Positions 8,744-14,216 of a stretch of 64,000 nucleotides of DNA are shown in pieces (position 1 is the first letter of the stretch; each line of letters starts with the position of its first letter). Source of the DNA: an uncultured bacterium (GTDB taxonomy: Bacteria; Chlamydiota; Chlamydiia; Chlamydiales; SM23-39); the NCBI GenBank assembly GCA_963716985.1, contig OY970323.1, positions 408,611-472,610 of the forward strand. Reading direction: 5' to 3'. The position numbers and the translations under genes are program-made. The notes below the pieces were generated by a model, which worked only from the letters and a program-made list of their open reading frames with translations, was not told the DNA's origin and did no database searches.

Positions 8744-9279
8744 AACAAAATCTCCTCGTTATTAATATATTATTATAACAAAAAACTATTTAATTAACAA
8801 TAAACTATTAGTTTGTTTTTTAATATAAATAAACAATTTTGGTATACAAGTTTTTTATTATCAATATGATGCATTCTGGACAAATCCAGGCAACAGATCT
8901 AAATTGCTTATTTACATTCACTTATTAAGAAGTTTGTGTGTTGATTTTATGGCCAATATATTAAGATCCTAATCTTGTATTATTTCTGAATATTAATAAT
9001 TCAAGTTGTTGATGACGATTGATTTACGCAACAATTCTATCAACCGTCAGGTAAATGCCTGATCCTTTCCCACCTCTTGGAAACGATCACGAAAGTGGAC
9101 CCACCTTCGATCACATGAGTGATACCACTTGGAGATTCCATTTTTGGATCCCCCCCCCTCGATCACTTGAGTGATACCATTTGGAGATTTCATTTTCCGA
9201 TCCCCGCCTTCGATCATGAAGGTGAGACCACCATAAAATTGACAATGCTCTTAATTTATACCTAATTTTGGGTTATTTC

Positions 9280-9947
9280 TTAATCTATTTTCGCCACCTT
9301 TTTGGGTTTCACATAAGATCTTTTTTTGAACTCTTCTAAACGATAACTTTTCCCCTCAATCACGACCTGTATACCTTTGTGTACTAAACGGTCTAAAGAT
9401 GCCATGGCTAGAATAGGATTTGGAAAACAGCTTCCCCATTCATTGAAGTCTCGATTACTTGTGATAATCAAAGAACTTTTTTCATATTTCTCGGAGATGA
9501 TTTTGTAAAGCTCACTTTGCTCCGTTTCATTGAAGGATTCTAAGCAAAAATCATCTAAAATGATAAGGGGTGTCTTGATGATGTTTCCCATTCTTTTTTG
9601 ATAACTGCCATCCCCCTTTCCATATTGAAGCCAATCAAAAAGTTGTCTCATTCCAAAAAAAATCACTTCAAAACCACGTCGACAGGCTTCGTATCCAAGT
9701 GACTGAGCTAAATGGCTTTTCCCAACACCACTAGGACCTAAAATAAAGATGTTCTGCTTTTGCAAAACAAAGTCACATCCTCCTAACTCTTTTAAAAAAG
9801 CAGCCTGGATTTTTTCATTAAAGCTAAAGTCAAATGTTTCCAGTGTCTTGCTTGGATCTAGGTGACTCTTGGCCAAGCGTTTAATTAATTGGTTATTTAG
9901 CCTGTTATCTACCTCATCAGTTATCAACATGTCTAAAAATCCATAGT
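9280..9947 (-). pseudogene. istB: istB (IS21 helper ATPase), 3' segment downstream of the intron insertion
   Basis: Walker A ILGPSGVGKSHLA and Walker B LIILDDF. It joins in frame with 11893-12001 to give a 258-aa IstB. Confidence 0.85.
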
Positions 9948-12093: not shown

Positions 12094-13776
12094 TTAATCG
12101 CGGCCAGCTTTTTCTATTTCTTGACAAAGCTGATCCATCTGTATCATTTGCGAACATGTTTTTGCCATCCCATTTCCATGAGATGAAAATGGATGTTTTT
12201 TCTTTAAAATTTCTTCAAAAGTATTTTTCTCGAGATTATTCCCATATTCGTTAAAGCCTCTGAAGAAACGATAGTTTTTTATTTCTAAAATCTTTCCCTT
12301 TTCTTCCATGATTTTGTCTTCTAAATTCTCTCTCAAAATGCGAGAAATGCTGACATAAGAAAAAGTCTTGTAATAGCAGGCTCGCTGACATGCTTTTTCC
12401 AAGCGATCTTCCGAGTATTTCAAGCTCAACCTCAAAATATAACGAATGGGTTTCAACTTATTGATCTTTTTGTCTTCCAAAAGTGTTTGCACAACTTTTT
12501 TTGTAAAAGGTCCTATTTCTTCTGCCATGCAAAGCAATCCTTGTCGAGAACATTGCAAAACAGTTTCCTTATCCGGAGGGGCATGCTCTTTCTTGCGAAC
12601 ATACTCCCACTTCTTCGAGGCTTTTTGGTGAAGAGCTATTTCTTGATGTGAGTAAAATATTTTCACAAAAGATTCAGTAGCGCAAACAAGGACTTTTTTT
12701 CCTATATATTCATAGGGAACAGAATAGTAAGCACTTTGGAAGCTAATCCTCCATTCTTTGTGAACAGTGCATTCTGCCCATGTTGTTTGCTCCCATCTTA
12801 AAAGAGGTAATGGCTTTAGAAGTTTTTGTTCCTCCTGAAAGAGCTCTCTTGGAGATCTTCCAACTTTTTGTATTATGTGAATATCGGCAACTTCATCTCC
12901 CCATTTCTCTAGAGCCTTTTCCAAGTCAGCTATGGTAAGTTCTTGTCCTTTCTCTTTCTGACTTGCTTTGAAAAATGGAAGAAAATTGTTCTTCACATAC
13001 TTCATGTCCGACTCGACTCCTCCCTTATGTTCCGGAGTGTAGGGAAGGCAGGGGTCAATGATAAATTGGTAATGGCGTGCCAAATCCTGATAGGATGTCT
13101 GAATTTTTTCATTATCAATGGTGCTTTTAATAACTCCAGCTTTGAGGTTATCCAGGCATACCTGCACAGGAACTCCACGAAAAAATTCAAATGCCAGAAT
13201 GTGGCACAAGAAAAAAACATCCATTTTTTGATGAAACACAATTTTTCTAAAAGCTCTTCTGGAATAGCGAAGTCTTCCTGAAAAAATCCAAGTTTTTCTT
13301 AAAATCCGCCCTTCATCTAAAAAAAATCCCAAAAAGCCAAAATCTACTTCCATGACTTCTCCCGGAACAGCGGTTCGAATCATCACCGGATCAGGAATGT
13401 TGGGGAAATTTTTTCTGATATATCTTCTTATTGCTTGAACGTCACAAGAACACTCTTTTTTAAGGAGGTCACAAATGACTACCGCAGAAAGCCCCTCTTT
13501 CTCCCATTCTTTGATTTTGTCATGATAAGGTTTAAGCACATGAGGTTTTCCAATTTCCGGAAAAGCTTGTTGAGTTTTGCTTATTAGCTCCTGCATGTTG
13601 GGTAATGACGTATCTGGATCTAACCAATGATGTTTTTTGGCTAGAACAGATACTTCTCGAACAGTCTTTCTTCGAACATGCATTTCTTTGCTGATTTTTC
13701 GGAAAGATTGTTGCTGTTTTAACCTGACAAGAATTTGTAATCCTTTTTCCACCATATAAATTATTTTGCTCCTCAT
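12094..13776 (-). CDS. istA: IS21-family transposase IstA
   Basis: 560 aa with an N-terminal HTH (SFRKISKEMHVRRKTVRE) and a DDE core (VMEVDFG...CLDNLKAG...TPEHKGGVES). Confidence 0.85.
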   Translation of the reverse strand: MRSKIIYMVEKGLQILVRLKQQQSFRKISKEMHVRRKTVREVSVLAKKHHWLDPDTSLPNMQELISKTQQAFPEIGKPHVLKPYHDKIKEWEKEGLSAVVICDLLKKECSCDVQAIRRYIRKNFPNIPDPVMIRTAVPGEVMEVDFGFLGFFLDEGRILRKTWIFSGRLRYSRRAFRKIVFHQKMDVFFLCHILAFEFFRGVPVQVCLDNLKAGVIKSTIDNEKIQTSYQDLARHYQFIIDPCLPYTPEHKGGVESDMKYVKNNFLPFFKASQKEKGQELTIADLEKALEKWGDEVADIHIIQKVGRSPRELFQEEQKLLKPLPLLRWEQTTWAECTVHKEWRISFQSAYYSVPYEYIGKKVLVCATESFVKIFYSHQEIALHQKASKKWEYVRKKEHAPPDKETVLQCSRQGLLCMAEEIGPFTKKVVQTLLEDKKINKLKPIRYILRLSLKYSEDRLEKACQRACYYKTFSYVSISRILRENLEDKIMEEKGKILEIKNYRFFRGFNEYGNNLEKNTFEEILKKKHPFSSHGNGMAKTCSQMIQMDQLCQEIEKAGRD

Positions 13777-14216
13777 AAAGCTGCTCCTTGATTAGCTTTT
13801 TGGTCATAAACGCAAGCTATCAAGAAAATTTTTGATTTAAATCTTTTATGGTGGGCTCACCTTCGTGATCGAAGGCGGGGATCGGAAAATGAAATCTCCA
13901 AATGGTATCACTCAAGTGATCGAAAAGGGGGGATCCAAAAATGAAATCTCCAAGTGGTATCACTTGTGTGATCGTACCCCCTGGTTCCCAAAACTGATCT
14001 CCAAGTGGAGTCACTTTGGTGATCGTTCACACCTCTTTCGCAGATCATTAATAACCAATGTGTTGCATTTTGCTGAGTAAGCTTTCAACCATTTAATGTT
14101 GAGACACTTAACAAAGATATGGGTAACGATCAGGGCAAATGCTTTCTGGATTTTTCGCTAATAATGTAAATTAAAAATTTTATTTAATAAATGTCTTGCT
14201 TTGTTAAATTATTAAA

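Follow-up and report, generated by a model that had tools for sequence, protein, structure and literature searches.

An IS21-family insertion sequence with a group II intron lying antisense in its helper gene istB in a chlamydial metagenomic contig

The insertion sequence and the intron within istB

A 64,000-nucleotide (nt) stretch of DNA from an uncultured member of the Chlamydiales (GenBank assembly GCA_963716985.1, contig OY970323.1; positions 408,611 to 472,610), here called the window, was found to carry a complete IS21-family insertion sequence (IS) in which the helper gene istB is split by a group II intron that lies on the opposite strand (Table 1). The transposase gene istA is intact, and istB is located downstream of it on the same strand. 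IstA matched NF033546 'IS21 family transposase' with 195 bits (cutoff 160), with further matches to PF22483, Mu-transpos_C_2 (Pfam) and, weakly, to rve, and the exact 553 amino acid (aa) product is present in protein records. The two parts of istB, when joined (12001..11893 + 9947..9280), encode a 258 aa protein that scored 242 bits on NF038214 'IS21-like element helper ATPase IstB' (cutoff 200) and matched PF01695 with 227 bits in one unbroken stretch spanning the junction. The assignment to IS21 made in a preliminary description of this region, which was based on the letters of the sequence and its open reading frames (ORFs), is borne out by the two NF profiles.

Table 1. Coordinates of the insertion sequence, the intron and their parts in the window
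Feature	Position	Strand	Details
Complete IS21-family insertion sequence	9078..14031	-	4954 base pairs (bp) with the intron, 3009 bp without; ends set by L029
istA transposase gene, intact	12094..13776	-	560 aa from first ATG; public gene calls start at M8 (13755), giving 553 aa
istB exon 1	11893..12001	-	Codons 1-36 and one base (MEDL...QKWS); abuts 9947 in uninterrupted copies
istB exon 2	9280..9947	-	YYGFLDML... through stop codon; gene callers give a 216 aa fragment from internal ATG 9930
Target-site duplication CCTCT, left	9073..9077	.	Read from sequence; equals 14032-14036
Target-site duplication CCTCT, right	14032..14036	.	Read from sequence; IS end 14031 fixed by L029
istB-proximal terminal inverted repeat	9078..9238	.	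Terminal unit TGGAAACGATCAC... and three ~52-bp units (starts 9100, 9152, 9203)
istA-proximal terminal inverted repeat	13843..14031	.	Four ~52-bp units (starts 13843, 13894, 13946, 13997); ends ...GATCGTTCACA
Group II intron, antisense to istB	9948..11892	+	1945 nt; Rfam domain V/VI, end-to-end homology to 8 related introns, exact empty sites
Intron-binding site 1 (IBS1; ATAGT)	9943..9947	+	Last 5 nt of 5' exon on the intron strand; relatives have CGTAGT there
Exon-binding site 1 (EBS1; ACUAUA) in terminal hairpin loop	10179..10184	+	Pairs with IBS1 AUAGU 9943-9947
Intron-encoded reverse transcriptase (RT)/maturase	10493..11809	+	438 aa; 451 aa from upstream GTG 10454; RT and X/maturase, no DNA-binding/endonuclease domain (D/En)
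Domains V and VI	11808..11892	+	AGC catalytic triad from 11811; bulged branch-point A 11886

The IS has TG...CA termini, and repeat units with a ~52-bp period form an array at each end. The right array has four units, and the left one has three in addition to a terminal half unit. An ATCAC-N4-GTGAT core is found in each unit, and the units are presumed to be binding sites for IstA. Multiple repeats at each end are the terminal architecture described for IS21 (PMC11208146). The two ends share an inverted match of 131 bp with 93.9% identity, the right-hand arm of which is 13844-13974.

A complete, uninterrupted copy of the IS was found in L029 (Logan ERR12076131, 3013 bp; L numbers denote loci in other assemblies), which encodes an IstA of 553 aa and an IstB of 258 aa and aligned to window positions 14031..11893 at 99.3% and then to 9947..9078 at 97.5%. 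Its first base corresponds to window position 14031 (TGTGAACG...; TGTGAACGATCAC...) and its last but one to 9078 (...CGTTTCCA; ...GATCGTTTCCA). The homology of L008, L009 and L028 to the window also ceases at 9078, and the two termini align without a gap when the end is set at 14031 (TGGAAACGATCAC vs TGTGAACGATCAC). The ends of L029 place the right end of the IS at 14031, not at 14029, and make CCTCT the target duplication. The preliminary description had allowed either CCTCT or CACCTCT, and only the 5-bp version is retained; the TG...CA ends and terminal repeat arrays that it recognised are confirmed. Target duplications in the IS21 family range from 4 to 8 bp.

L029 consists of exactly one IS unit (TGTG...TCCA) and a single extra C at the end. 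It could simply be a repeat-bounded unitig, or it could reflect abutted ends or a circular or tandem junction, the latter a type of transposition intermediate used by IS21. In two independent Logan contigs, L020 and L021, position 1 corresponds to window position 14089, 58 nt outside the IS end, and those samples may thus have another polymorphism or the edge of a repeat within 14032-14088.

The intron begins with GTGCG (9948-9952) and ends with ...CCAAC (at 11892), fitting the GUGYG / AY pattern. The Rfam model RF00029 (domain V/VI) matched 11808-11892 with 42.7 bits (gathering score 40), ending on the last intron base. In the fold of 11800-11892 (z = -5.8), domain V is canonical, with both the AGC triad and the bulge of 2 nt, and domain VI leaves A11886, at position -7, bulged. 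The GTGCG start, the domain V and the bulged A seven nt from the 3' end that had been picked out from the letters were thus all recovered. None of the seven Rfam models for domains D1-D4 of group II introns matched the intron, even at E <= 10, and Rfam thus gave no RNA subclass. An RNAalifold consensus of domains I-III from six relatives, one of them only 68% identical, includes 143 pairs, of which 40 have compensatory changes. The ribozyme portion is ~625 nt, a size that falls in the range given for small IIE/IIF introns, 450-700 nt (PMC3753933).

The RT ORF is located in domain IV, and its product matched TIGR04416 'group II intron reverse transcriptase/maturase' with 410 bits (cutoff 300) as well as PF00078 (RVT_1) and PF08388 (GIIM). 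The exact protein is present in protein records, and both its ORF and the catalytic elements of the intron are undamaged. The protein extends for 30 residues after GIIM, and a profile search found no match to an HNH or other endonuclease domain in it, in agreement with the preliminary description. An RT protein that ends after X/maturase without D/En is a trait of the endonuclease-less lineages (bacterial classes A, C, D, E, F and g1-g6). RT motif 5, usually YADD, is WADD in 119 of 120 relatives and FADD in the other, hence WADD is a family trait and not a lesion. An FADD motif has been described in introns of the g2 variety, in a paper that does not mention WADD (PMC3552965). The nearest solved structures are those of the endonuclease-less IIC RTs 7uim and 6ar1 (E ~1e-67), followed by T.el4h-type (1e-55) and LtrA (5e-43). 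An EBS1 of 5-6 nt argues against class IIC, as does the finding by eye of no terminator-like hairpin upstream of the target. Close kinship with RmInt1 of Sinorhizobium meliloti (class D) is disfavoured, as there was no Sinorhizobium record among the 30 best plasmid matches, which extend down to ~38-40% identity. Promoter-like matches in the region were at the shuffled background (14 vs 11.6 +/- 3.4 expected), as was a terminator scan, so that neither scan bears on the transcription of the intron.

Window position 11893 directly abuts 9947 in five loci of other assemblies (L008, L009, L010, L028 and L029), all of which carry exactly the reconstructed 50-nt empty site, CAGTTATCAACATGTCTAAAAATCCATAGT followed directly by AGGACCATTTCTGAGATCCT. 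The IstB joined in silico matches a protein on record (P0121) at 258 of 258 residues. Eight related introns (~90-94% nt identity) were found in unrelated flanks, and similarity between these and the window is lost exactly at 9948 and after 11892, where the ends are assembled. The limits 9948-11892 are thus correct by three independent tests. The same limits had been proposed in the preliminary description from the reading frame, on the grounds that removal of this interval restores an IstB of 258 aa, and this is the protein found in P0121. It had also pointed to covariance models and uninterrupted copies as places where the splice sites might prove to be different. The RF00029 match ends at 11892, so that istB is restored, and no differing junction sequence was found in the five uninterrupted loci.

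Related introns and the recognition of the target

The closest relatives of the intron RT (92-94% identity) are metagenomic, and those that are named come from Chlamydiae or Parachlamydiales bacteria. The next tier is a very large set of ~70% identical proteins, one of which is annotated as coming from a Methanomicrobiales archaeon. Of the plasmid matches listed, those to Bradyrhizobium and Microvirga (70-72%) ranked highest, together with Cupriavidus and Paraburkholderia at 59%.

About ten relatives, with 59-94% RT identity, are nested in other group II introns. Their hosts belong to at least three types, and the insertions lie at the beginning of the host RT ORF or a short distance before it (for example L002, 5166-8951; L003, 4993-8950; L005, 142-3993; L006, 5085-7400). 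A D1-D4 match from another group II intron (Rfam types -2, -3 or -6) is located ~90-350 nt upstream of the insertion in L002, L003, L005, L006, L016 and L018. A second RT ORF (378-470 aa) starts within ~330 nt downstream in L002, L003 and L005 (~60 nt in L002 and L005), and a second (host) domain V/VI match is present farther downstream in L002 and L003. Twintron homing of this pattern has been described for Methanosarcina (PMC4424553). In the 64 kb of the window there was only one RF00029 match, and no host intron surrounds the window copy, which sits in istB.

The sites occupied by the relatives read ...AAGTC(A/G)G-N6-CGTAGT/A, where the final slash marks the insertion point. L003 has GGCAG instead of AAGTCAG, and L026 and L027 (the Microvirga and Cupriavidus copies) have the same 5'-exon motif as the other relatives. 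The window site, ...ATGTCTAAAAATCCATAGT/A (CATAGT/A), shares the last five bases, the A at +1 and GTC at -17 to -15, and the first base of the 3' exon is A in 8 of the 8 sites where it is known. The possibility that AAGTCAG...CGTAGT is conserved merely as code for the N-terminus of the host RT (K-S-D..V-V) was considered but does not account for all sites. It holds for L026 and L027, where the start of the host RT (..EKSD..VV..) is encoded there, whereas in L002 and L006 the motif was judged by eye to be non-coding.

A hairpin at intron positions 224-248, with compensatory changes in its stem, has the loop GCACUAUAA. In the window copy, ACUAUA can form five Watson-Crick pairs with AUAGU, and the loop of the relatives, ACUAUG, can form six pairs with CGUAGU, one of them G-U. 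In the diverged relative L017, the loop GUCAGC is opposite the 5' exon sequence GCUGGC, which constitutes covariation. This loop is identified as EBS1, and its pairing with IBS1, supported by the covariation, agrees with the 5' boundary of the intron. The partner lies within the sequence around 9935-9947 in which the preliminary description had expected it. Candidates for EBS2, namely the internal loop AAGGAUAA, the loop UUAGGCG, and CUGAU opposite AAGUCAG, were rejected as they were inconsistent across sites. The pairing of CUGAU with GUCAG is unsupported by L026 and by the window site.

One of the relatives is itself interrupted. In Cupriavidus necator N-1, positions ~326 and ~554 of the 59%-identical intron on plasmid pBB2 (L027; 793-4392) flank an IS110-family element that lies on the opposite strand, a mirror image of the situation in the window.

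As all of the relatives examined sit in group II introns and the site in a second istB (described below) is unoccupied, the insertion in istB is better called ectopic retrotransposition than retrohoming. The alternative, that the antisense strand of IS21 istB is the natural homing site of this intron as ISRm2011-2 is for RmInt1, appears improbable. The five Watson-Crick pairs at the window site are at least as good a match as CGUAGU provides in L006, which has the same loop, and group II introns that use IS elements as homing sites are known (PMC1802570). However, every related copy examined lies in another group II intron and none in IS21, and the AAGTCAG motif found upstream in the sites of the relatives shrinks to GTC in the window. 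In addition, the five uninterrupted IS copies with the exact 50-nt site are all empty, including L028, which encodes an IstB (P0255) that is also recorded on a 2.07-Mb contig together with the products of the window locus. In exact-protein look-ups, no genome had the intron at more than one place, and the same was true of the full-length IS. The empty site in the second copy and the single location of the intron argue that it is not homing efficiently into istB.

The orientation of the intron was examined relative to the likely direction of replication. Outside the IS, the + strand is richer in G than in C in 53 of 58 1-kb bins (overall skew +0.08), and the cumulative GC skew climbs monotonically from ~14 kb to 64 kb. 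The rRNA operon and 4 of 4 tRNA genes are also on the + strand. As the skew is still positive across the S10-EF-G-S7-S12 operon, which is on the minus strand, the signal appears to be linked to replication rather than to transcription. Thus, the + strand is probably the leading-strand sequence here, the parental template for lagging-strand synthesis, and the intron, with its sense strand on the + strand, would lie on the lagging-strand template. RmInt1, likewise endonuclease-less, and ectopic Ll.LtrB events favour the same orientation (PMC1802570, PMC8914252). It is the orientation expected of endonuclease-less introns and supports the involvement of the replication fork. Of the replication-fork-dependent retrohoming suggested in the preliminary description, the fork is therefore favoured, whereas retrohoming gives way to an ectopic event.

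Taken together, it is very likely that an IS21-family element inserted by ordinary transposition, leaving a 5-bp CCTCT duplication, and that an endonuclease-less intron later landed in it ectopically and in antisense, with loss of IstB in cis. The intron ribonucleoprotein, whose relatives normally live inside group II introns at ...CGTAGT/A, would have reverse-spliced into the look-alike CATAGT/A on the strand antisense to istB, recognised by the 5-bp EBS1-IBS1 pairing and the conserved A at +1. The target would have been the G-rich strand, the probable lagging-strand template, and cDNA synthesis may have been primed by the nascent lagging strand, as for RmInt1. Translation of IstB would then stop after 36 native codons and leave a copy that could not move alone, and a second copy with an intact istB might supply IstB in trans.

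Several points weigh against this sequence of events. No consistent EBS2-IBS2 pair was found across the sites, and the recognition of the target is only partly explained. Exact-protein look-up gave no donor copy of the intron in this genome. When alleles lacking the IS were sought via the two flanking proteins, all that came up was the locus itself or contigs ending 58 nt beyond the IS, hence the target duplication is inferred from the sequence and not proven. The direction of replication was deduced from the GC skew of a single 64-kb window, in which the S10-EF-G-S7-S12 operon runs against the + strand. Finally, the placing of the second IS copy in the same genome is based on an equal length of the longest contig (2,067,739 bp) and on co-occurrence in sample ERZ25039519.

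Consequences for istB and a second copy of the IS

The istB ORF that remains in the window (12001..11804) consists of 36 native codons followed by 29 intron-antisense codons to a stop. The break is within the N-terminal dimerisation domain, which is missing from the 216 aa remnant that starts at ATG 9930. IstA and IstB are both essential for IS21 transposition, and the N-terminal domain of IstB is needed for dimerisation and assembly (PMC11208146). The complement of a group II intron cannot splice, and an antisense insertion leaves an inactive intron in the transcript (PMC3898094). As the antisense intron cannot be spliced out and IstB is essential, the IS is predicted to be disabled in cis and unable to move on its own. 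The location of the intron on the + strand, opposite to istB, had led the preliminary description to the same view of splicing.

The 553 aa IstA, the intron RT and the 216 aa IstB fragment were all placed by exact look-up on a contig of 2,067,739 bp. Records for a contig of this length also include an intact 258 aa IstB with one Y-to-H difference (P0255) and a 190 aa C-terminal fragment of IstA. This second copy of the IS (L008, L009 and L028) is cut off at the equivalent of window position 12842 and is without the 5' two-thirds of istA and the adjacent IS end, and its intron target site is intact and empty. L008 is from sample ERZ25039519, as is a 59.5-kb contig that reproduces the window locus, and the second copy appears to be in the same genome. 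Copy numbers were taken from exact-protein look-ups. The defects are complementary, as the window copy has good ends and istA but a broken istB, whereas the second copy has a good istB but a broken istA and one end missing. The second copy could therefore supply IstB in trans, in which case the IS would be conditionally immobilised. The earlier statement that the IS should be immobile unless IstB is supplied in trans holds with respect to the loss in cis (PMC11208146), and its proviso may apply here through P0255. A scan for IstB of genome contigs of the GTDB representatives, which do not include this organism, found only 28-34% identical relatives (Bdellovibrionia, Hydrogenophilales).

In L008, the second copy occupies 1-1182, and the next 173 bp are unrelated DNA followed by an IS110-family element that is 98% identical to a copy in the window at ~5796-6802. 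IS110-family transposase genes recur around the locus (475 aa and 233 aa products; L014/L022).

A further possibility is that the IS21::intron chimera is a working composite element, in which IstA in cis and IstB from the sister copy would transpose the whole 4954-bp unit. If so, composite transposition would give a poorly targeting endonuclease-less intron a DNA route to new replicons, and convergent istAB and intron transcription would lead to mutual antisense repression that keeps both elements quiet. This proposal, including the antisense repression, is considered rather unlikely.

It is more doubtful still that the IS has remained partly functional, either because the 216 aa truncated IstB suffices or because IstA alone moves the element. 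The ATG at 9930 follows the junction by 17 nt, and the truncated product, which gene callers report, retains the whole AAA+ module. However, IstB needs the missing N-terminal domain in order to dimerise and to self-assemble under nucleotide control, and transposition does not proceed without IstB (PMC11208146). The background level of promoter-like matches reported above also speaks against this reading, which is highly improbable.

Identical IS::intron junctions were found in the 59.5-kb contig from ERZ25039519 (L014, L019, L022 and L023; intron 100%), in ERZ25039466 (L001) and in Logan ERR11523654 (L024), and the products of the locus are recorded on the 2,067,739-bp contig too. L024 starts exactly 30 nt upstream of the intron, which may reflect branching of the assembly graph at the exon/intron junction, and filled and empty istB alleles would then coexist in ERR11523654. 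An assembly artefact, with the intron misjoined into the IS through repeats, can practically be dismissed: both elements are repeats at whose edges short-read contigs break, as seen in L024, L020 and L021 and in L001, which is chimeric after intron position 1497, but the two junctions are the same in separate assemblies and samples as well as in the records for the 2.07-Mb contig, and they coincide exactly with canonical intron termini. L001 is 100% identical to window positions 9163-11444, and the remainder (2283-3255) is unrelated G+C-rich DNA which, from a by-eye reading of the translation of its other strand, we take to encode an RsmG-like methyltransferase. L001 is probably a chimeric metagenome assembly.

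Comparison with known systems and neighbouring genes

The intron resembles RmInt1 in that it encodes an RT/maturase without D/En and is resident in an IS, and its occupied site on the probable lagging-strand template fits priming by the nascent lagging strand (PMC1802570, PMC8914252). However, RmInt1 is found in a cognate and repeatedly occupied site, and its host IS is ISRm2011-2 rather than an IS21 element, whereas the window intron, with a distantly related RT, appears to have inserted ectopically, once, and antisense to a gene. Like the nested introns (twintrons) of Methanosarcina acetivorans (PMC4424553), the relatives of the window intron are nested at a conserved host site, but the window copy is in an IS21 gene and not in an intron. 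As with antisense targetron insertions, the disruption of the gene would be non-conditional (PMC3898094), though here the insertion is natural, endonuclease-less and not retargeted via an engineered EBS.

The IS itself shares with the archetypal IS21/IS5376 the order istA before istB, a DDE transposase with an AAA+ helper, multi-unit terminal repeats, TG...CA ends and a short target duplication (PMC11208146). It differs in having four repeat units per end, with the left terminal half unit counted, compared to 'at least two' at each end of the archetype (PMC11208146), in its relatively long IstA (553 aa) and in the interruption of istB.

Most bacterial group II introns reside within mobile DNA of other kinds and away from housekeeping genes (PMC4424553; PMC4181065). 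A literature search found no paper on a group II intron in IS21 or istB. This is a gap in examples and not in concepts. The locus is an ordinary case of a mobile element within a mobile element. Introns in IS elements, nested intron homing, antisense knock-outs and the lagging-strand bias are already established, and current understanding is unchanged. What the locus adds is a cleanly documented natural case of mobile elements disabling each other, with filled and empty alleles at the intron site, and an apparent ectopic jump by an intron family that is otherwise specialised in nesting inside introns. The target pair CGTAGT/A and CATAGT/A provides material on relaxed EBS1 pairing and retrotransposition in endonuclease-less introns, and the two complementary IS copies are a natural set-up that bears on the action of IstB in trans.

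The gene beside the IS (14299-15249, + strand) encodes a protein with a RING finger (zf-rbx1) and ankyrin repeats, an eukaryote-like effector architecture typical of amoeba-associated chlamydiae. This gene fits the Chlamydiae and Parachlamydiales names of the closest RT relatives, and the 5' end of the 16S rRNA gene in the window also looks chlamydia-like to us. On the other side of the IS, a small ORF (7853-8239, - strand; ...RRIWQEKV...SGLSMARWCREQQVNYNSFLYWDKRF) is presumably, from its appearance by eye, a fragment of an IS66-family accessory protein. Together with the IS110 copies, this fragment suggests that the IS21 element sits in a patch of mobile-element debris.

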